This document shows, piece after piece, positions 5,413-26,441 of a stretch of DNA of 64,000 nt. The stretch's first letter is position 1; every line of letters starts with the position of its first letter. The notes under the pieces were generated by a model. That model saw only the letters and a program-made list of their open reading frames with translations. It was not told where the DNA came from and searched no databases. The stretch lies in the IMG/VR virus record IMGVR_UViG_3300044691_000477, positions 1 through 64,000 of that record, one strand, 5' to 3'. A program made the translations under genes and the position numbers. The stretch is from a virus.

Positions 5413-8400
5413 CAGCCACTCCCTACGGATTCAAGAGCGTGGTTCTGCTCGATCTCGTCCTTCACCATGGAGAGGAAGTCCTGCGCATCCTTCTGAGTTG
5501 CCTTGCCGACAACAGTGATTGGGGCCTGGATCGTCACGTCACGAAGACCACTACCGCCACTGCCTTGATGACTCTGCACCGTGCCGCCGGCGCGCTGACC
5601 CTTGCGGGCGATCATCGCGCGGACCTTGCGCGCCTCCTGCGCTGGCACAACCATCTCGTCGTTGTGCAGGTAGGCCAGGCCCTCTGCGGTGGAGTAGGAG
5701 CCCTGTGCGTAACCCTTGTACTTACCGCCATGCGTCATACTTTTGATACCGGGAACGTTGTCGAGGCTGCCGTAACGGCCCATCGCGTAACGCGTCCCAG
5801 CGATGATGTTGTCGACCGGGTTCCAGATGTCCCCGTGACCTGGAAGCGCCCAACGACTGAAGGTCGAGTCGATGGTCTGCATCAGACCCTTGGACGGGTG
5901 GCCAGCCTTGGCGTTGGAGTCCCAGTTGTTCTGGGCGTGCGGGTTGCCCCCGCTCTCGTGCTGAATGATGCTCGCGATAGACCCGCCGTACTTGCCGAAG
6001 TCGAGATGCATCAGGCCGAGTGCCGTCTTCACCCAACTTCCGACCGTGCCGCCAGGTGGCGGTCCGGTGGGCGTACCAGCACTCTGCGAGGTTGTCGTCC
6101 TGCCTGACCCTGCACCGCCAGCGCCAGACCGACCACCGCCGAAGTCGCCACCGAACAGCGACGGAGGAGTGAGCACCGAGGCCAGCGCGCTCTGCTCGTC
6201 GCCGAATCCGAAGACCGAGGACAAGTTGGCTGAGGACCGTGTGACCGGGCCGGTGCCACTGTCTCCCTGCGCTGCGGGGTTGCCCGCTGACACAACGCCC
6301 TTCAGCCCAGCGCCTCCACCAGCGACACGCCTGGCGTTGGTGGGAGCCCGAAGCTTGGTGTTGTGGATGTTCGCGCCCGTGTGTGGAGCCTCGACCATCT
6401 GCCCGTTGCCGATGTACATGGCCACGTGGTGAGCCGGGCTGCCGTAGAACACCAGGTCGCCAGGGACGAGCTGGTCTAGCGGGACATCGGCGCCAACCTG
6501 CTGCTGCTGCGCAGCCGTTCGTGGCAACTTGACGCCGTTCTGGCCGAAGGACCACTGCATCAGCCCCGAGCAGTCGAAGGACGTCTTCGGGTTCGAGCCG
6601 CCCCACTTGTACGGCCTGCCGACGAAGGACTCCGCAGTGGAGATGATGCCGCTGACCGAGCTGCTTGCCGCCGTGGGCTTGGTGCTCGACGCCACATTCG
6701 CGCTACCGCCAGCACCAGTCGCTCCACCTGGCTGACCGACGCTGTAAGACATCTGCTGCTGAGCGCTGCTGTTAAACATCACCCGCCCGCTGTCGGACCG
6801 CCCAGCGGCGTTGTTGCTGGCGCTGAGCTTGCTGCGGTACTTGGCCATGAGCTGCGCCAGTGCGTGCAGCGCCTTCAACTCATCGTCCTTCTTGCGACTC
6901 TGGGTGGAGCGCATCACCAACGGGCGAACGGTGCCCTCGTACTCAGCCTGTGCGTCAGGGAGACGACTGAACCCCTCGCTCGCCCAGCGGTGCAACATGC
7001 CTGTCAGGCTGCCGTCGTTGGCGTAGGCGTTCTTCTGCGCGATCTCGGTGTTGCTGGTGGCCCCGAACCAGCCGGCGTGCGCCATACCTGAGAGAGCGTG
7101 CCCTCCTGCGACGGTCACCCCTCCGACAATCGCGCCGGCCAGTGGGTTCACTGCGCCGACAGCTCCGACGACGCCGCCCATCACGCCGGCCTGTGTGCCG
7201 CCGATGCCATCAATCTGGCTGTACCCATACCCCGCTGCAGCCCCTTCCGCAGCACCGGCACCGAGACGACCTGCCAACCGCCCTCGAGGGGACCGCATGA
7301 ACGCCTTGGCGCGCGCGAAGCGACCAGCAGTGGTTCCCTCTTCGCCTGGCAGGCCACCAGGGAGACCGTCTCCTCCTCCCCCTCCACCACCGCCTCCGAA
7401 GCCACCACCTGGCATGTTCGTGACGTAGACCGGAGTGCCCATCAAGCCACTGGCCCCGAGTGCGCCCTTGGCCCCGCCCTTCAGACCGCCCTTGAGCCGA
7501 TTGACAAGCCCACCGCCTCCTCGGACCCCCCCGAAGAACCCACCAATGGTTTCGAGGTTGAAGGTGCTCTGGCCAGCCTGCTCGAGGGCACCCTTTGCGC
7601 CACCCGCACTTCCCGGCAAGAAGCTGGCCAGTGCACTGGCCCCACCAAGATTGACACCGATGTGATTGTTCAGTCCCGCGAATGCCTGCGTCAGTGTGTT
7701 GGTGACATTCGCCAGGTCATTGAACCCTCGCATCAGCGAGTCACGACCCTCTGTCATCGCCTCGGTCGTACGGTTGGTGGTGGCTCGTCCAGCTCGGTTC
7801 TGCGCAGATCTAATGCTGTCGAGGCCACCGAGGCGAGTGTCTCTTGTCTGCCGTCCTGCTGCTGCGTCTGACAGAGCCTTGTTCGTTCTATCGGGACTGC
7901 CGCCAAGGTTCGCCTGCACCAGGGCGTACATGCGGAACTGCTCCATGGCGTTGGCGTCGAGACCGAGACCGACCAGGGTGCGGTAGAGCGGGGCACCCGG
8001 CTGCATGCCCTCACCGATCATGTCCGCAGTGACCTTCTGGCCGCGGAAGACAAGCCGCTGGATCTGCTGGTAGATGCCTTGCGGGGTCTGCATGACGCCG
8101 CGGCTGCCTTGAGGCGTCACCCCAAGGCTGCGCATCCGGTTCTGCGTCTGCGCGCTGTAGAGGCTCGAGACAGCAGCGGCGGACCCCTGGAAGCCGGCTG
8201 AGGGGTTGAGAGCTGAGAGCTGCCCCACCGACTGCAGAGCACGGTTGGTGCGCGCGTTACCCAGACCCGCGCCGAGTGCCCCCTGGATCTGCCCGACACC
8301 ACCCATCAGGTCACTGGCCGACTGGTAGCCGCCGTACCCCTGCAGGGTGCTGATGTTCCCGCGGTAGGCGCCCTGGCTGAAGCCCTGCCCACCGGACAGC

Positions 8401-20446: not shown

Positions 20447-21355
20447 CTACCCGAACATGCCCCTGCCCTGCTGCTGCTGTGAAGCAGCTCCCAGCAGCCG
20501 TCCCCGAAGTTGTGAATACTGCGTCATGTCCATCGCCTGGAGTTCCTCCAGGCTCAACGTTTGGTATCCCGAGTCGTTGTCCAATGGCCCCACTGGCGGT
20601 GCCGTGACCCCGACACCCCTGGCCGGCGGCAGAGCCGTTCGACCAGCGGTGGCCGTAGCCACATCGCTGAGAATAGACGCGCTCCGCTCCGCAAGTGCGG
20701 AGATGCTCGCCTCGATCTCCTCCCGGTTGTTGCCGAGCACCAGGTCGCGCATCTGCGGGATGATCTGCGGGCCGAGTCCACGACCAGGCCCGTTGGGGTC
20801 CTCGTTGGTCAGCGCGGTGTTGCGGTACTGCATTAGCTCGTTGAACTCGCGCTCCTTGGCGATGATCGCCTGCGACTGCTCGAGCTGCGTCTGCAGACCC
20901 CCGACCTGCTGAGTCATCTGCGCCTGGAACTCGCTGAGCTTCTCGCCGAAAGACAACTCGGCCAGTCGCTTCTCCTCGGCGGCGTCGGCAGCAGCCTTGA
21001 GCGCTGCCTCCTCGGCCTGCTGGCGAGTGGTGAGGTCGGTGCTGAAGGCGCTCATCTGCTGCTCGAGAGCGGCCACTCGCTGCTTCTCGGCTTCGATGGT
21101 CTCGTAGAGCTTGTCCTTCTCCTGCTTGCGCGCAGCCTCGACGGCAGCGGCAACGCGCGGGTCCGCCAAGATGTCAGCAGGGATCTGCTGCACCGTGGGT
21201 GCTGGAGCGGGTGGGGCAGCAGGAATCACCACCGCCGGCTCCGTGGCGGGGATGGTCATGACCATCTCGCCGTATCGGTCACGGTTGAGGGCCAGCAGGC
21301 CCTTGACGTCACCGGCCTCGAGCAGTGCCAGCGTGGTGAGGGCGTGCTTGTTCAT
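20447..21355 (-). CDS. Scaffolding protein
   Basis: Track ORF trimmed to ATG 21355 (GGAGAA RBS). 302 aa, Ala/Glu/Gln-rich coiled coil, upstream of the capsid gene. Confidence 0.75.
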   Translation of the reverse strand: MNKHALTTLALLEAGDVKGLLALNRDRYGEMVMTIPATEPAVVIPAAPPAPAPTVQQIPADILADPRVAAAVEAARKQEKDKLYETIEAEKQRVAALEQQMSAFSTDLTTRQQAEEAALKAAADAAEEKRLAELSFGEKLSEFQAQMTQQVGGLQTQLEQSQAIIAKEREFNELMQYRNTALTNEDPNGPGRGLGPQIIPQMRDLVLGNNREEIEASISALAERSASILSDVATATAGRTALPPARGVGVTAPPVGPLDNDSGYQTLSLEELQAMDMTQYSQLRGRLLGAASQQQQGRGMFG

Positions 21356-21429
21356 CGTTTCTCCAGAGTCGTTGTCCAGTGCCAGCCGAAGCTGGCGGTC
21401 CCATGAGGAGCATCCTGGCCCGACTTCGT

Positions 21430-21654
21430 TCACTCGTTGCGTAGAGTCCACTCCTCGCTCGGCTCCCAGTCGTCCCCCATGACCCGGCGCACGACAAGTT
21501 CTGCAGTCTGGTACTGCCCGTGGCGGATGAGGGCCTTTATCGTGTCGACCTGAGCCTGCAACGCAGCGAACTGCTGCAGGGTGCAGTCGGCTCTGGCGGC
21601 GCCAATGAGCATGACGAACTTGAGCGCCTTGCCGAACTCGTTGACGTCGACCAT
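21430..21654 (-). CDS. Hypothetical protein
   Basis: Track ORF 21430..21669. ATG 21654 shares one base (TGATG) with the stop of the upstream small ORF. Confidence 0.55.
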   Translation of the reverse strand: MVDVNEFGKALKFVMLIGAARADCTLQQFAALQAQVDTIKALIRHGQYQTAELVVRRVMGDDWEPSEEWTLRNE

Positions 21655-21803
21655 CAGCGTTCGACCCATGCATCCCCCTCAGGAACTGGGTCTTCTTCTC
21701 GCTGCTCTGGTATCAGCGCCTCGAGCGCGTGATGCCCAAGTTCTGCATCGTGGAGGGCGCACGCCTCGGCGTACTCCTTCCAAGAGAGCTCGATGAGGTC
21801 CAC
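21654..21803 (-). CDS. Small hypothetical protein (49 aa)
   Basis: Track ORF 21654..21869 trimmed to GTG 21803, just past the portal stop. High GC3, weak RBS. Confidence 0.35.
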   Translation of the reverse strand: MDLIELSWKEYAEACALHDAELGHHALEALIPEQREEDPVPEGDAWVER

Positions 21804-21804
21804 G

Positions 21805-23596
21805 TCATGTCGCGTTATCGGTGTCCGCTGCTGGCGGGCGCCGGGTGGCGAGTTGAGTGCCGTAGGCACGAGTGTTGAGCCTGGTCATGAGCTCCTGAGT
21901 CTCGGACGACATCGGTACACCCATCCCACCCATCGGGGGCATACCCGCTGCGCCAGTACCGGCATCGGTCGCCCCGGCCTGCTGCACATCGCCACCCGCA
22001 CTGGCACCAGACGCTCCTGCCACAGGGGGCGGGAACGGCTGGGGCTGACCGGGAATGAACTGACCCGTCTCCTGCTGCACGATCTGCGAGATCTGCGCAC
22101 GGATCATGTCGAGCGACCCCTGGTCGATGGCGTCCTGCACGAGTTCGAGGAAGGTCTCGCGCAACTTCTCGTTGGGGAAGACCTCACCAAGCTCCTCGAG
22201 GGCGTCCTTCTTCGACACCAGGCCCATCTGCATCTTGAGCATGAGCTCGTTGAGGACAACGATCTTGTCGACCGGCAGCGGCGGCGGGAAGTGCACGACG
22301 GTCACGAAGGTGATCGGGTCATCAACGTCGAGAACTGGCTGCTGGTAGGACTCGAGCTCCTCGTCCTCGGTCGGCGACCAGGAAAACGCCTGTGGCTCGT
22401 TGACAGCCAGTGTCAGCAGGGCCAACTCGTTGATGCGCTTGTAGAGCTTCCCGTAGGTCATCTTCTTGTGGTCATAGCGCTGCATCATCGGCTGATACTG
22501 GATGGCGAGTGCGACGCCGCTGGTGTTGCTGATCGGCTGTACGTCACCGAGTGCGCCCTCAGGTACGCCGGTCAACTCGTGCATGGCCTTCTTGACCATC
22601 TCGAGGTACTTCAGCCCGGCCTCGACACCACCGCCGGCGAGTTCGAGGTTGAAGACGTTGGCGTCCTTGGGAAGCCCGCCCCAGATCTTCTTTGCGCCCT
22701 TCTCGAGCTGCGAGGACTTCGCGCCGGTCATGACTGTCACTGGAGCCGCGTGGTAGTTCACGATGTCAGAGACATCGGTCGCCTTCTCGTTGTACTCACG
22801 GTTGAGAATCGTGATGTCAGCAATGTCGCTCAGGCCCCACGGGCTGCCGCTGACCATGATGTTCGGCGACACCGCAATGGGCACCGTGCCGAGCGGGTTC
22901 GGGCGCGCATCTACGAGTTGGTCGTTGATGTACTCCTCGATGTAGGTCTCGCTGATCAGCTCGGTGTAGGTGAAGACCTGGCGAGTGCCCTCAGGAGATG
23001 TCCCCCAGAAGCGGTACTTCTGCTTGAACCGGAGCAGCCGCTCCTTGTCATGCGGGTGCCACTCAGGGAAGCACTGCGCCGCGTTGAGCGGCATGATGCG
23101 CACTCGCCCTGGGTGGAACCGCTGCAGCACACCGGGAATGGGCTGACCGTCCTGGTCGACGCCCGACATCCAGCCTTCCTCGTAGGCGACCTTGCAGAAG
23201 ACATCGCCTGAAACGCTGCCCTGGTTGCCTAGCTCCCAGATCACCGTCGGCTTGTGGTTGTCGGTCTCCCAGACTCGCTCCATTAGCGCCGGCACGATGT
23301 GCTCGGTCTCCTTGGGACTGCGGAAGTTGACGCCGCGTCCGAAGCAGAAGTTGGTGATGAAGTCAGAGAACGCCTTGACGTAGTTGAAGGTGAGCTGCGG
23401 CTCACCCGGCTCACGGCGGTAAGACCAGTGGTGTCCTAGGTAAAAAGCCCAGCTAATTGTGGGCGTAACGGTTCAGGCGAGGTCCATGGACCTCGAACTC
23501 CTCATCCGCTAGCTCAACCAGTCCCAGGGGACTGATCGCGATGGTGAGGTCTGAACCAGCCGCCCGATACGAGGGGGAACTGAAATCAACTGTCAT
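21805..23596 (-). CDS. Portal protein (SPP1 gp6-like), reading frame broken by an apparent +1 shift at 23456..23472
   Basis: The main frame is open from 23472 but has no start codon before GTG 23295. Those 59 codons are protein-like (AFYLGHHWSYRREPGEPQLTFNYVKAFSDFITNFCFGRGVNF). A 47-codon ORF at 23453..23596 with GGAGGTG RBS supplies the N-terminus. Confidence 0.8.
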
Positions 23597-23902
23597 CTCT
23601 GCTTCACCTCCGACCCGACGATCTGGGCGCTCAGATACTGCGCCGCCCTGACTAGCGTGTCAGGGTCGTCGCCGAAGTAGCCGAGACCCTGGTTGCACCT
23701 GTTGCAGAGTAGGCCGCGCACGGCTCCAGTCGTGTGACAGTGGTCGACGCAGATCTTGCTCACCTCAGCCAGCGGGGTCAGACAGATGCCGCAGCGCCCG
23801 AGTTGCTCGTACGGCAGTGAGACGTGCGTGCTCCCGGTCTTTGCCGATGAACGCGTGCAGCGGGTGCCTGGTCGGGTTCAAGACCTTCGTCTTCGTGGTC
23901 AC
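23593..23902 (-). pseudogene. Endonuclease VII-family (HNH-like) nuclease, frame-disrupted
   Basis: GTG 23902 opens frame A (VTTKTKVLNPTRHPLHAFIGKDREH). The domain LPYEQLGRCGICL..VDHCHTTGAVRGLLCNRCNQGLGYFGDDP lies in the +1 frame, ending at 23593. The span is 310 nt. Confidence 0.6.
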
Positions 23903-23944
23903 GATGTGATGGTCCCCTGAGTCGTGGTCCGAGTGGTGGAGAGG

Positions 23945-24268
23945 CTAGTGGTAGCCGTGCGGCCACCCATATCGGTTGTAGTCGATAACTGGCACGTGGC
24001 TGGCCCCCAGGTCCATCAGCGACGCGGCGCGATGGTGCCCGTCCTTCACCTTCCCGGTCTGCATGTCCATGAGCACAGGATTCTGCACACCGTGCTCTGC
24101 AATGCTGTCGCGCAAGTCGTCATACCCACCTCGAGCACGTACTTCGTTCCAGTCCTTGCCGGCGTCGACGGGCTCACCAGGAACCGCATGCTTGGTGAAG
24201 GTCTTCATGCTCAGGTGATGGACGTCCAGACCCTGCCACTGCCTGCCGAGAGCCCGCGGGGCGCTCAT
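23945..24268 (-). CDS. ParB/Srx-like nuclease-domain protein (paralog 1)
   Basis: ATG 24268 (ATGA coupling). DLRDSIAEHGVQNPV..KVKDGHHRAASLMDLGASHVPV is a ParB N-terminal domain pattern. Confidence 0.75.
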   Translation of the reverse strand: MSAPRALGRQWQGLDVHHLSMKTFTKHAVPGEPVDAGKDWNEVRARGGYDDLRDSIAEHGVQNPVLMDMQTGKVKDGHHRAASLMDLGASHVPVIDYNRYGWPHGYH

Positions 24269-24648
24269 GCGAGCACGCCGTCGTGCAGGAAGCCGTGCCA
24301 CGCCTGCCTCAGCACGACCTCCTCGTCATCCACCATGATCTTGCTCTCGTAGGTCTGAATCGACCCTGCGCCGGCTATGCAGGTGTCTCCGTTCTTGTCG
24401 ACGGTCAGCCGGTCGAGTGGCCCGTGACGCACCCAGCAGCGGTGCGTCCGGTCGTCGGGACTTCCGCAGTTGCTGGCCCGGCGATCGGGGCACCAGGAGT
24501 CGCCGGTCGGCAGAATCACCGTGACATGCGTACCTGAGCAGTTGTCCCAGTCACAGCGGTAGGTGTGCTCCCACTCGTACACCGCTCCCGGCTCGGAGCG
24601 GTTGTCCGCGTCGGCGGTGGTGGCGAAGGTCTGCAGTGGTGCACTCAT
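24265..24648 (-). CDS. Cys/His-rich hypothetical protein
   Basis: 127-aa ORF coupled at both ends to ParB-like genes. Ends in WHGFLHDGVLA. Confidence 0.7.
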   Translation of the reverse strand: MSAPLQTFATTADADNRSEPGAVYEWEHTYRCDWDNCSGTHVTVILPTGDSWCPDRRASNCGSPDDRTHRCWVRHGPLDRLTVDKNGDTCIAGAGSIQTYESKIMVDDEEVVLRQAWHGFLHDGVLA

Positions 24649-24887
24649 CGGATCTTCTCGACCGGGAGGTGTGACAGCCCTGCTTGGGCTGCAGCGTGGA
24701 CACGGTGGTTACCGTTCACCAGTCGGTCGCCGCCGACCAGACGGATGTGGTCGTCGTTGTCGTCGGCCCACTGCGCGTCGTACCCGCTGTCACGCATCTG
24801 CCGGGCGTAGGTCGCGACCTTCTCGTGGTCGACCACGCCACTGTCCAGCAAGTGCGCGAGCGTCAGCAGGTGCCTTACCGGCATCAT
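24645..24887 (-). CDS. ParB/Srx-like nuclease-domain protein (paralog 2)
   Basis: Track ORF 24645..24935; ATG 24887 preferred. LVNGNHRVHAAAQAGLSHLPV. Start is uncertain. Confidence 0.65.
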   Translation of the reverse strand: MMPVRHLLTLAHLLDSGVVDHEKVATYARQMRDSGYDAQWADDNDDHIRLVGGDRLVNGNHRVHAAAQAGLSHLPVEKIR

Positions 24888-24901
24888 GGTGATGTCCCGC
24901 T

Positions 24902-25630
24902 TCACCCCGCAGCTCCGTAACCAGGGAGTTGCCACTGCCGCCCGAGCGCCCGGTGCAGACCTGACCTGGTGAGAAGTTGTGACGTCGGACCAAGGGTCGC
25001 CACCTTCTGCACTGGCTGGCCACCGACAGAGCCGAAGTTGTTGGTGCTGTTCTGGCCGCGGGTCTCGGTCGTCATCGCCTGTCGAGCCAGCGGGGAGTAC
25101 ATCTCGCGGTGCGCGCGGTACGCCGCTTCTTCGCCGTCGGCGCTGAAGTTGCGACCCGTACCGGCGTGGCCGAAGACGTCGTGCACCGCGCGGAAGGCGT
25201 CGTTCTCGTCGTTGGTGAAGAACGGGTGCCCACCCGTGGCCGAGGTGGCCATGCTCTTGATGACACCGTGCTCGTGCACGTCGCGCATCATCGCGAGACT
25301 GTTCGGCGCACCAGAAGCCGTGACGTAGGGATCATTCGGCGTGACCTGGTGGGTGAGCCCGAGGCCCTTGGGCGACGTCATGAACTCGTGCTGGCGCATG
25401 GTCTCGTCGCGCATCGCACGGAAGCTCGGCATCGCCTCCGGCATGTGCTCCGGGGCAGCCTCGTACAGCCCTGCGACGTGCCGAGCGATTACCGGGTCGA
25501 CCGCGACGTGACTGAAGTCGCGTTGCATCGGACCACTGAAGCCGTTCTGGCCCCGGTATCGCTCGGCAGCTTCCTGAACCTGGGGAACAGGACGACCGGC
25601 ACCGACCATGAAGTGCCCAGTGCGACTCAT
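24902..25630 (-). CDS. Hypothetical protein (242 aa)
   Basis: Long ORF with high GC3. Contains FRAVHDVFGHAGTG. The C-terminal RALGRQWQ copies the ParB-paralog N-terminal leader. Confidence 0.7.
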   Translation of the reverse strand: MSRTGHFMVGAGRPVPQVQEAAERYRGQNGFSGPMQRDFSHVAVDPVIARHVAGLYEAAPEHMPEAMPSFRAMRDETMRQHEFMTSPKGLGLTHQVTPNDPYVTASGAPNSLAMMRDVHEHGVIKSMATSATGGHPFFTNDENDAFRAVHDVFGHAGTGRNFSADGEEAAYRAHREMYSPLARQAMTTETRGQNSTNNFGSVGGQPVQKVATLGPTSQLLTRSGLHRALGRQWQLPGYGAAG

Positions 25631-25646
25631 GTTCCCCCCTCAGGGG

Positions 25647-25985
25647 TCAGCGAGGCGAGTAGGCGACCGAGACGTCCAGATCCGAACCGGCGACCGTGCT
25701 GCCGATCTGGGTGACGTTGAGGTCGAAGGTCTGCGCGCTGGCGAAGGTGACGTCGGGGTTGATGTCGAACACCGCCTCGGTGGCGCCGATGGCGAAGGTC
25801 AGCGTGCCGACCACCACGGTGTCGAGCCGCACCTGGACGATGAGAGATGCCCCGGTGGGAGCAGTGCCGACCACGCCGTTGATGGACGTTGCGTCACCGC
25901 TGAAGGCGGTCTCGTAGCGGTCCTTGACGCCCGTGGTGAGCGCACCTGCGGCTTCCAGGGTGAAGGTCTCGCGGACGTCAGGCAT
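25647..25985 (-). CDS. Small beta-rich hypothetical protein
   Basis: 112-aa ORF. Confidence 0.65.
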   Translation of the reverse strand: MPDVRETFTLEAAGALTTGVKDRYETAFSGDATSINGVVGTAPTGASLIVQVRLDTVVVGTLTFAIGATEAVFDINPDVTFASAQTFDLNVTQIGSTVAGSDLDVSVAYSPR

Positions 25986-26048
25986 TCGGGCTCCTTGATC
26001 GGTTGTGGCATGGGGAGTTGCTTGGTACTACGCAGGGCGCGCAGCAGA

Positions 26049-26441
26049 TCAGTCCATCACGACTGCAGCGTTGAGGATCTCGTGGCGGGTGCCGCTGCGG
26101 ATCTCATCGACGTACTCGATGACGTCGCCCTCGCCGGCGCCGGCTGCGAAGGCACCGAGGTAGGGCGGCGAGTCGACCCAGGCAGCGCTACCAGGATGCG
26201 CGCGCTCCTTGAGCACCTGGTCTGCGTGCTTGTAGAGCGTCTCGGGGTTCGGGCCACCGCCCGGACCAGGCGTGCCGCCCTCCATCATCCCCTGCTGGAA
26301 GTCGTTGGGGATGTCGGTGTCGGTGGCCAGGCCCTCCTCGAAGCGAAGCGGCCCCCCGTTGCCAGGCACTGACGGGGCGATCTTGCGCTCGTACATGACA
26401 GGAGCGCGCTCGGGGAACTGTGGTGCAGGAGCGATGGTCAC
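26049..26441 (-). CDS. Hypothetical Gly/Pro-rich protein
   Basis: 130-aa ORF directly downstream of the terminase. Confidence 0.65.
   Translation of the reverse strand: MTIAPAPQFPERAPVMYERKIAPSVPGNGGPLRFEEGLATDTDIPNDFQQGMMEGGTPGPGGGPNPETLYKHADQVLKERAHPGSAAWVDSPPYLGAFAAGAGEGDVIEYVDEIRSGTRHEILNAAVVMD

Follow-up and report, generated by a model that had tools for sequence, protein, structure and literature searches.

A four-nucleotide, stop-initiated interruption of a phage portal gene and a wider series of portal insertions associated with upstream endonuclease genes

How might a phage make its portal protein when the portal gene is broken, near its beginning, by an in-frame stop codon and a change of reading frame? 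The question is raised by the window that we analyzed, a stretch of 64,000 nucleotides (nt) comprising positions 1 to 64,000 of IMG/VR virus record IMGVR_UViG_3300044691_000477. In this window a 4-nt insertion, TAGC, interrupts the portal gene directly downstream of an EndoVII-type endonuclease gene. An initial annotation of the same DNA had concentrated on the genes between the large terminase gene (TerL) and the portal gene, and it overlooked the interrupted portal, which is the unusual feature of the locus; the TerL–portal block is an ordinary mosaic cargo region, common in actinophage genomes. Our analysis indicates that the locus is probably a case of translational bypass linked to a homing endonuclease. 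We compared the window with fetched relative loci, more than 200 in all, which carry L numbers below; the window and its insertion-bearing relatives are metagenome assemblies. The insertion alleles are listed in Table 1, and the coordinates of the window’s features are collected in Table 2.

The interrupted portal gene and the endonuclease gene before it

The portal gene begins at 23596, and not at 23295, with its ATG overlapping the stop codon of the EndoVII gene. Its main open reading frame (ORF) matched PF05133 (SPP1_portal) in a profile search at 3e-14. The first portal segment was 81–85% identical to the portal N-termini of relatives (the Streptomyces phage LuckySocke and locus L004). This segment ended ...CGT TAC GCC CAC AAT and was then closed by TAG; its last sense codon, AAT (23458–23456), is called the take-off codon below. 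Joining the two segments gave a portal of 595 amino acids (aa), and the portals of relatives are 573–597 aa long. Uninterrupted RYAHNWAFYLGHHW was found in L004, L010, L011, and L003 (L011 reads CAC AAC TGG GCC), and an insertion-free portal 5′ end of the L011 type reads CACAACTGGGC.

The same CACAAYTAGCTGGGC was present in the window, L009, L095, and L104, which came from different samples and had diverged flanks. Comparing the window with L009, we found 20 synonymous and 1 non-synonymous differences in the 47 codons upstream of the insertion, and 29 synonymous and 15 non-synonymous differences in the first 100 codons downstream. A second comparison among TAGC carriers gave 23 synonymous and 6 non-synonymous differences in the 47 upstream codons. 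We concluded that both halves of the portal gene are under purifying selection. Reassignment of the stop codon was rejected because the reading frame would stay unrestored, and an intron or intein was rejected because the insert is just 4 nt long. A search with ARAGORN found no tRNA genes within the window, which covers 64 of ~108 kb, and gave no lead to a suppressor or quadruplet-decoding tRNA. In the Streptomyces phages BRock and LuckySocke, 9–10 tRNA genes are arrayed within 9 kb upstream of TerL.

The EndoVII gene of the window looks damaged at its N-terminal end. Its canonical-start ORF (23593–23763, 56 aa) matched PF02945 with 59.4 bits (3e-16, against a cut-off of 23.6) over profile positions 39–81 of 82. 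Read from 23877, where this frame is already open, the sequence spans 94 codons and scored 70.6 bits (1e-19) over positions 17–81. The extended frame lacks a canonical start; the only one is GTG 23763, and the first Cys pair lies upstream of that codon. The open frame encodes CGIC (CxxC)...DHCH...CNRCN, where intact relatives read DHDH. Alignment to two undamaged EndoVII genes, from L009 and L104, showed frame-changing indels in the orf45 region, and orf45 may be what remains, displaced, of the N-terminal part of the endonuclease. Undamaged orthologues immediately precede the portal in L009 (91 aa), L104 (131 aa), and L095 (172 aa), and the gene is absent from this portal-side position in L004, L010, L011, BRock, and LuckySocke. 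The TAGC insertion was confined to EndoVII-bearing genomes.

Recurrent insertions, their endonucleases, and a proposed decoding of the portal

The interruption in the window has counterparts elsewhere. In a first set of 88 portal loci, fetched by protein similarity, the N-terminus was split in four, and an endonuclease gene lay immediately upstream in all four. More loci came from motif scans that allowed extra bases; the scan of IMG/VR yielded at least 120 intact motifs, as well as six 4-nt and four 7-nt variants. The result was 13 distinct insertions of 4, 6, 7, 9, or 11 nt within the same ~25 codons of the portal (Table 1), placed at EEF/E/V and N/WAx(W)/Y/LGHH/W, where slashes mark the insertion sites. 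Two insertions are present in some of the genomes. Between the two insertion hot spots, window positions 23479–23494 on the minus strand (portal codons EVHGPR) form a perfect 16-nt palindrome, GAGGTCCATGGACCTC; it is only partly kept in L009, and may be a recognition element or due to chance.

Table 1. Insertion alleles of the portal gene, with the codons that precede and follow each insert and the loci that carry it
Preceding codon	Insert	Next codon	Loci
AAY	TAGC	TGG	window, L009, L095, L104
AAT	AAAC	TGG	L096
TGG	ATACAAACTGA	TTT	L103
TGG	CTATAAAGG	TAC	L105, L106
TAT	TAAC	TTA	L073, L092, L097
TAT	TGAC	TTA	L093
TAT	TAGGTAC	YTA	L098–L102
CAT	TGAGCAT	TGG	L070
TTT	TGATTC	GAG	L096
TTC	TGACTC	GAG	L097
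GAG	TAAGTAG	GTT	L093
GAA	TAGCCCGAA	GTT	L100–L102
GAA	TAGTGAA	GTT	L146

A stop codon directly follows the preceding sense codon in 10 of the 13 alleles; the others begin AAA, ATA, or CTA, and the AAA-starting allele was found in a phage of 63% G+C. In 6 of 13 alleles the insert ends in three bases synonymous with the preceding codon, and in the other 7 two of the three bases match; the chance that at least two of three bases match is ~16% per allele. The matched take-off/landing pairs are CAU/CAU, GAA/GAA (twice), UAU/UAC, UUU/UUC, and AAU/AAC. The frame is preserved, yet a stop codon is included, in two alleles of 6 nt and two of 9 nt. For a second allele group, the codons downstream of the insertion showed 23–44 synonymous versus 6–15 non-synonymous differences.

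We counted the association with endonuclease genes in loci that had at least 700 nt of upstream sequence, with L095, L105, and L106 corrected manually. An endonuclease gene or its remnant lay directly upstream of 18 of 20 interrupted portals, as against 1 of 169 intact portals. Four endonuclease types were found upstream of interrupted portals, each with its own allele or alleles. EndoVII (2e-23, 8e-19) and classical HNH (PF01844, 4e-9) exceeded Pfam thresholds. The other two, an HNH_3-like type and a type that shares an N-terminal Cys-rich module with the HNH type, matched the HNH-endonuclease family phrog_374 at 1e-35 to 1e-51.

The endonucleases of L096 and of L073/L092 offer a side observation on these types. 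Their N-terminal Cys-rich modules are similar (FxKxxCxCG...SCGC) and both proteins match phrog_374, whereas their C-terminal halves differ, being HNH in the one and a domain without a Pfam match in the other. The pattern suggests that a shared DNA-binding module was swapped between nuclease cores.

Several loci carry traces of mobility. The EndoVII ORF of L095 (reverse complement, 7310–7828 and 7818 onward) opens with a second copy of portal codons 2–32, in which the amino acids are identical to those of the real portal start and 30 of 96 bases differ. This duplicate is what would be left by a cassette that brought in a foreign portal 5′ end, and the endonuclease of L095 appears to use the resident portal’s original start. 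The EndoVII protein of L106 has 177 aa; its N-terminal ~45 and C-terminal ~34 residues make up a 79-aa ORF in L105, from which the nuclease core has been deleted, and L105 keeps the 9-nt portal insertion despite this deletion. Likewise, L146 and L103 have kept their insertions and have no endonuclease gene.

Judging from these sequence patterns, it is likely that recoding is how the portal is expressed and that immunity against the endonuclease is tied to the insertion. As we picture it, the endonuclease gene and TAGC, which lies 141 nt into the portal gene, would form one mobile cassette. In competing phages whose portal gene is free of the insertion, the endonuclease would cut the highly conserved 5′ part of that gene, and the break would be repaired by copying in the endonuclease gene along with the portal 5′ end and its insertion. 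The insertion would shield the carrier genome from its own enzyme. Because the TAG is in frame and the frame beyond it is shifted, full-length portal would be made only by non-standard decoding. In a hop, peptidyl-tRNA(Asn) would leave AAU with the stop codon in the A site, re-pair 4 nt downstream on AGC (two of three bases), and resume at UGG. Alternatively, the ribosome may shift by +1 and insert one Ser. The expected junction peptide is YAHNWAFYLGHHWSYR from the hop and YAHNSWAFYLGHHWSYR from the +1 shift. Since just 12 portal subunits go into a virion, even inefficient decoding might be enough.

For the family as a whole, hopping is favored by the stop-containing in-frame alleles, by take-off and landing codons that are often identical, and by the stop codon right after the take-off codon. 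Simple +1 frameshifting at a ‘shifty stop’ (AAU UAG C), which would add one Ser without a hop, gains support from the length of the window’s insert (3n+1 nt), from the in-frame stop after the P-site codon with a C following it, and from the putative landing codon AGC, which is non-cognate for tRNA-Asn. A C after a stop codon makes a weak termination context. However, tRNA-Asn would re-pair poorly on AUU, and the added residue would sit inside the most conserved portal motif. The sister 6- and 9-nt alleles are in frame with a stop, so that frameshifting could not rescue them and hopping could, and a pure +1 mechanism does not require the insert to end, as it so often does, in a codon synonymous with the take-off codon. 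We regard the +1 shift as unlikely, though with a real chance of being correct. Could the interruption instead be a sequencing or assembly error, or belong to a dead phage genome with a pseudogenized portal? The sequence comes from a JGI metagenome contig of 107,973 bp, the neighboring EndoVII gene also looks frame-damaged, and no split portal was found among cultured phages in a collection of 50,697 records, the portals of BRock and LuckySocke being intact. Even so, because the identical insertion recurs in three other assemblies, from other samples, and the differences flanking it are mostly synonymous on both sides, whereas a pseudogene would drift toward about 1 synonymous to 3 non-synonymous, we judged an error or a dead gene very improbable. 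The twelve further alleles that other lineages carry at this spot, all of them conserved inside their own groups, argue to the same effect. The insertions might also be regulatory attenuators that hold portal synthesis low, with the endonuclease genes present by coincidence, as hitch-hikers at a site of frequent recombination. Few copies of the portal protein are needed, inserts in the Hau3 terminase were proposed to be regulatory (PMC10732093), and L146 and L103 carry insertions without an endonuclease gene. Against such attenuation, an adjacent endonuclease gene is missing from 168 of 169 intact portals and present at 18 of the 20 that are interrupted, every family of endonuclease has an allele of its own, and the L095 junction shows an endonuclease gene and a portal 5′ end arriving together; we consider it improbable.

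Several observations weigh against recoding tied to endonuclease immunity, the explanation that we prefer. The absence of split portals from the cultured-phage collection is one, and the origin of all insertion-bearing sequences in metagenome assemblies is another. Several insertion-bearing loci are near-duplicates across databases, and the window, L009, and L104 share ancestry, so that the number of independent insertion events is closer to 10–13 than to 20. One intact portal, that of L003, has an upstream endonuclease gene (HNH). The window’s own EndoVII has no canonical start for the full domain and reads DHCH for DHDH, and the cassette here may be a relic. In addition, the window’s take-off codon AAU and landing codon AGC are not cognate, the two-of-three match placing G opposite U at the middle position. 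A 121-nt fold around the site gave z = −1.26, which is not significant for RNA structure, and no consistent Shine-Dalgarno-like element was seen across the alleles. Finally, the likeness of landing codons could partly reflect how the insertions arose, by short duplications (e.g., CATTG-AG-CATTG in L070), and not selection for hopping. We lean somewhat toward a broader proposal, drawn from the sequences compared here: free-standing homing endonucleases of at least four types may have repeatedly invaded the pre-portal site in a large family of ~60–115-kb phages (42–66% G+C), each invasion fixing in the most conserved 5′ motif of the portal a self-immunity insertion of 4–11 nt, usually stop-initiated, that ribosomes of very different hosts would hop over.

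The genes between terminase and portal

The initial annotation had reported seven ORFs between TerL and portal, and we found all of them at the positions given there, on the minus strand; in order from TerL to portal they measure 130, 112, 242, 96, 127, 118, and 56 aa. Its identification of TerL, portal, and EndoVII was confirmed by profile matches. The co-orientation that it described holds for every gene of the block. The translational coupling holds at four junctions: g242/g96 (GTGA, with GTG 24905 as the likely g96 start overlapping the g242 stop), g96/g127 (ATGA), g127/g118 (ATGA, where an alternative, internal g118 ATG at 24268 overlaps the g127 stop), and EndoVII/portal (ATGA). The remaining junctions are gaps of 16–63 nt. 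G+C was 0.60–0.67 across the block and the same in the flanks, with no compositional break. A megablast search of the region found no DNA relative among the 50,697 phage records.

Table 2. Features of the window in and around the TerL–portal interval
Feature	Coordinates	Strand	Description
TerL, large terminase, 529 aa	26490..28079	-	Terminase_6C/PF17289 4.5e-9, phrog_2 1e-28
g130	26049..26441	-	lineage-wide core gene between TerL and portal
g112	25647..25985	-	subclade-conserved small protein
g242	24902..25630	-	stand-alone copy of a domain embedded elsewhere in large phage proteins
g96 (ParB-like 2)	24645..24935	-	ParB/Srx-like NGNHR motif; window-specific cargo
g127	24265..24648	-	Cys/His-rich small accessory protein of several phage contexts
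g118 (ParB-like 1)	23945..24301	-	ParB N-terminal-domain-like, DGHHR motif; window-specific cargo
orf45, 45 codons	23765..23902	-	upstream of the EndoVII core in another frame; from three-frame translation
EndoVII-type (His-Me finger) gene	23593..23877	-	PF02945; putative homing-endonuclease gene, probably N-terminally decayed
Portal segment 1, codons 1–47	23456..23596	-	47-aa ORF, with stop 23453–23596
4-nt insertion TAGC	23455–23452	-	inside conserved motif HN/WAFYLGHHW; in-frame TAG and frame change
Portal segment 2	21805..23451	-	+1 frame, resumes TGG GCT TTT TAC...; PF05133

The nearest cultured relatives by TerL (~50% identity) are the ~113-kb Streptomyces phages BRock, LuckySocke, Alone3, GiJojo, and pSt2308, with 50% identity to the TerL of BRock and LuckySocke. 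The annotation had assumed that TerL and portal are normally adjacent. In BRock and LuckySocke they are separated by 5–6 hypothetical genes, and in metagenomic relatives by 2–11 genes; for this lineage the assumption does not hold. Of the interval genes, BRock and LuckySocke share only g130 with the window. Closer metagenomic relatives were located through g242 homologues, and in L004/L005 the identity to the window was 81% for TerL (that of L004 included), 93% for capsid, and 76% for portal. Clustering of the interval genes revealed an order shared by L004, L009, L010, and L011: TerL, g130, g112 or an unrelated gene of the same size, 0–3 variable genes, g242, 2–4 variable genes, and portal. 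The variable slot on the portal side holds acetyltransferase-like genes and two small families in the relatives, and g96, g127, g118, and EndoVII in the window. In broader, mostly aquatic relatives of 42–50% G+C, the interval consists of a g130 homologue and a small basic protein of 81–104 aa.

Homologues of g130 were present in 88 fetched loci, either beside TerL or just upstream of the portal, and 293 were found in databases; the protein has no Pfam family. Its AlphaFold2 model had a predicted local distance difference test (pLDDT) score of 52 despite an alignment of 45 sequences, and the protein is largely disordered by prediction, which suggests that it folds only within an assembly. We concluded that g130 is a core gene of the phage family, always in the interval. 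Homologues of g112 occupy the same position in L004/L005/L012 and L010 (42–52% identity), and an unrelated gene of similar size occupies it in L009 and L011; g112 and g242 are conserved genes of the Streptomyces-type subclade. The interval is thus built of three layers, namely the core gene, the subclade genes, and a cargo slot just upstream of the portal that exchanges small accessory genes. No model in Pfam, NCBIfam, or PADLOC matched g130, g112, g242, or g127, and sequence and profile searches of PDB with these four proteins, g96, and g118 returned nothing significant.

This layering bears on the proposal that the whole 2.9-kb block entered, as a single mobile accessory island, between TerL and portal genes that are otherwise adjacent. 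Co-orientation, the coupling of several genes, and the presence of nuclease-type domains speak for such an island. However, g130 is universal in the family, and TerL and portal are still apart in relatives that lack the cargo genes; G+C is also uniform over block and flanks. Because g130 is fixed, the g112 and g242 order is common to relatives, and the remaining genes each have a distribution of their own, the block is not one insertion, and we consider a single island extremely improbable. The suggestion of a homing or mobile insertion survives for the portal-proximal part, where EndoVII is sporadic and portal insertions are linked to it, and fails for the block as a whole.

The 242-aa protein had been called unrecognised. 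That description was upheld by Pfam, where a scan of the window protein and 61 family members found no family (LPD, MPTase, and PBECR included), and by PDB; it was not upheld by phrog_3170, which g242 matched at 6e-38, by the 1531 homologues of g242, or by its fold, which recurs in polyvalent proteins. In a 61-sequence alignment the invariant residues were H135, H150-D151, H155, E167-E168, H174, R191, and Q193. The resulting pattern, HDxxxH...EE...H, suggests that g242 is a candidate metal-dependent hydrolase. Assignment to zincin-like metallopeptidases (HExxxH type, PMC5512222) was considered on the motif HDVFGH, an EE helix, and the order of secondary structure, and it stays a lead. The AlphaFold2 model had a pLDDT of 91.6 and a predicted template-modeling score (pTM) of 0.87. 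Foldseek found no PDB structure below E 0.5 (best E = 0.5). In BFVD it found matches with E of 1e-9 to 1e-16 and template-modeling (TM) scores of 0.6–0.8, which were domains inside viral proteins of 433–1477 aa, several of them labeled MuF (‘head morphogenesis’), ART-PolyVal, NAT, or large polyvalent protein associated/LPD. The matched proteins that bear MuF, ART, or GNAT labels measure 621–1477 aa. The g242 gene lies between TerL and portal in L003, L004, L009, L010, and L011. By tblastn, its domain was also found in Rhodococcus phage E3 gp205, Mycobacterium cluster-C phages (Alice gp99), and Gordonia phage Skog, and it occurs in tail or virion gene regions of myoviruses. E3 gp205 adjoins a ‘ParB C-terminal domain’ gene, and its name, ‘structural protein’, is the depositor’s label only.

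Polyvalent proteins are effectors that are packaged in the capsid and injected (Iyer et al. 2017, PMC5512222); solo ParB-like and GNAT genes occur among late and structural genes, and capsid delivery has been suggested for them (PMC5512222). Like the polyvalent domains described there, the g242 fold recurs inside giant proteins that contain MuF, ART, GNAT, or LPD domains, and, as with the solo domains, ParB-like and GNAT genes fill the neighboring slot in the window and its relatives. In contrast to the described domains, g242 matches no Pfam LPD or MPTase family. From these likenesses we infer that g242 and the neighboring slot may encode solo effectors of the polyvalent repertoire.

The two ParB-like assignments fared differently. 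The 118-aa protein, g118, contains KDGHHRAASLMDLGASHVPV, the DGxHR ...PV segment, and matched ParB-domain PHROGs in the range 3e-8 to 3e-5 (phrog_498 3.5e-8, phrog_620 1.7e-7, and phrog_8071). Its ParB label is backed by PHROG matches of 1e-7 to 1e-8 and fell short of the Pfam and NCBIfam thresholds, with no Pfam match at E ≤ 1 and 14.8 bits against a cut-off of 58 for NCBIfam parB_part TIGR00180. The PADLOC MTase_II model matched the same ParB-like segment at 7e-7; the PADLOC scan as a whole returned only generic MTase and REase models, by way of the ParB and EndoVII segments. For the 96-aa protein, g96, the assignment was not sustained by profile searches, which returned phrog_5931 only, at 8e-4, and nothing from Pfam and NCBIfam; what it has is the motif VNGNHRVHAAAQAGLSHLPV (NGNHR...PV) and a weak pairwise match to g118 (E = 0.004). 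In 1.84 billion representative proteins, g96 had three matches: itself, the 1340-aa protein P0291, and one protein of 1547 aa. It is 56% identical to segment 979–1064 of P0291. P0291 has two repeated His-rich modules with a ...WFHGT... motif each and no Pfam match, and it looks like an undescribed polyvalent-type protein. No homologue of g96 or g118 was found in any of the fetched loci. The Cys/His-rich g127 has 49 homologues, among them one at a different position in the TerL–portal interval of L109 and one in L110, an unrelated temperate phage, beside lysis and integrase genes.

Do g242 and the ParB-like proteins process or modify DNA together with the packaging motor? A role of this kind had been suggested for the nuclease-type domains. 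Their genes adjoin TerL and portal, and ParB/Srx domains can be NTP-dependent nickases (PMC5512222). However, the ParB-like genes are missing from every relative examined, which makes packaging independent of them, and we found no evidence in support of such a role for them. The same slot in relatives holds acetyltransferase-like genes, and the g242 domain, with its occurrence in MuF/ART/GNAT proteins and in myovirus tail and virion regions, fits delivered effectors better. We give this role in packaging little chance.

Further observations concern the packaging and head genes of the lineage. The TerL of L009 (3347–6079) is 910 aa long with a LAGLIDADG_3 match, probably owing to an intein with a homing endonuclease, and L009 has a further EndoVII-domain gene of 323 aa after the capsid gene. 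In this lineage, mobile nuclease elements seem to be concentrated in the packaging and head module. The sole relative obtained from a scan of GTDB genomes, L228, is a 142-kb contig of the Streptomyces sp. NPDC057253 genome with an intact portal; its major capsid gene (1274–2551) matches that of the window in two pieces ~286 nt apart, which could be due to an intron or another insert. In the window, a 408-aa ORF upstream of the capsid gene (20447–21673, minus strand) is probably over-extended. Its likeness to the scaffolding proteins of relatives starts only around residue 100–175, and its N-terminal part is Arg-rich and looks out of context.

Significance and comparison with known systems

To our knowledge, T4 gene 60 with its homologues is essentially the only natural example of programmed bypassing that has been studied well; beside it stand a case proposed in phage Hau3 and yeast mitochondria. 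If our reading is correct, the portal insertions would make up a large natural family of short ‘stop-hop’ recoding sites, the first of its kind, and the principle of T4 mobA/gene 60 would extend to a second essential gene. The 13 natural alleles, with gaps of 4, 6, 7, 9, and 11 nt and with matched and near-matched codons, form a comparative series in one protein context, and their hosts differ widely in G+C; the series could be used to ask which minimal signals allow a stop codon to be skipped. The insertions would also show that an essential structural gene tolerates a frame-breaking insert, probably because 12 copies per virion suffice, and that homing endonucleases can drive the repeated origin of recoding. 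For annotation, a portal gene that looks ‘split’ or ‘truncated’ beside an HNH or EndoVII gene should not be written off as an error or a pseudogene.

In T4, the bypass insert of gene 60 protects against the endonuclease MobA (bioRxiv 10.1101/2022.08.31.505936, Manning & Atkins; Bonocora et al. 2011 as cited in PMC5009743). Several features of that system recur in the portal loci. A free-standing HNH-type endonuclease gene lies directly upstream of an essential, highly conserved gene. The insert falls early in that gene, with its stop after a sense codon (codon 46 in T4, codon 47 here), and is thought to protect against the cassette’s own nuclease. The cassette carries a copy of target flank (HomR in T4, the duplicate of portal codons 2–32 in L095), and variants that have lost the endonuclease occur in both systems. 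The differences are also plain. The target is the portal and not a topoisomerase; the gaps are 4–11 nt, as against 20–50 nt in the T4 type; and around the portal insertions neither a take-off stem-loop nor any other conserved signal was detected. In the portal, many unrelated alleles have converged on one stretch of ~25 codons, as have no fewer than four types of endonuclease; the window’s take-off and landing codons are unmatched, and bypass at the portal is a prediction. An EndoVII-type core as such has a precedent in F-CphI of cyanophage S-PM2, a free-standing homing endonuclease with the EndoVII catalytic motif (PMC6083498). Like the window’s gene, F-CphI joins such a core in a phage homing endonuclease to a place beside a conserved gene; it differs in family branch and target, and no recoding insert is described for it.

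Two further systems resemble the portal insertions in their decoding. The terminase genes of Streptomyces phage Hau3 and of StrepC.1 contain 7–10-nt bypass inserts, for which a junction peptide was obtained by mass spectrometry in E. coli (PMC10732093). As in the portal, these are short frame-disrupting inserts in a packaging gene of an actinophage, with flanks that are contiguous in relatives. The Hau3 inserts start with the rare codon UUA, have been read as sensing the host tRNA(bldA), and have no homing endonuclease (PMC10732093), whereas the portal inserts are mostly stop-initiated and endonuclease-linked. In the ‘stop-hopping’ observed in E. coli, a peptidyl-tRNA leaves a sense codon, passes over the stop codon next to it, and lands on a matching codon within a few nucleotides (Weiss et al. 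1987, as described in PMC10732093). The layout of the UUU UGA UUC, GAA UAG UGAA, and CAU UGAG CAU alleles is identical to this arrangement. The E. coli cases were synthetic or incidental and of low efficiency, whereas in the portal the same layout is fixed in natural essential genes.

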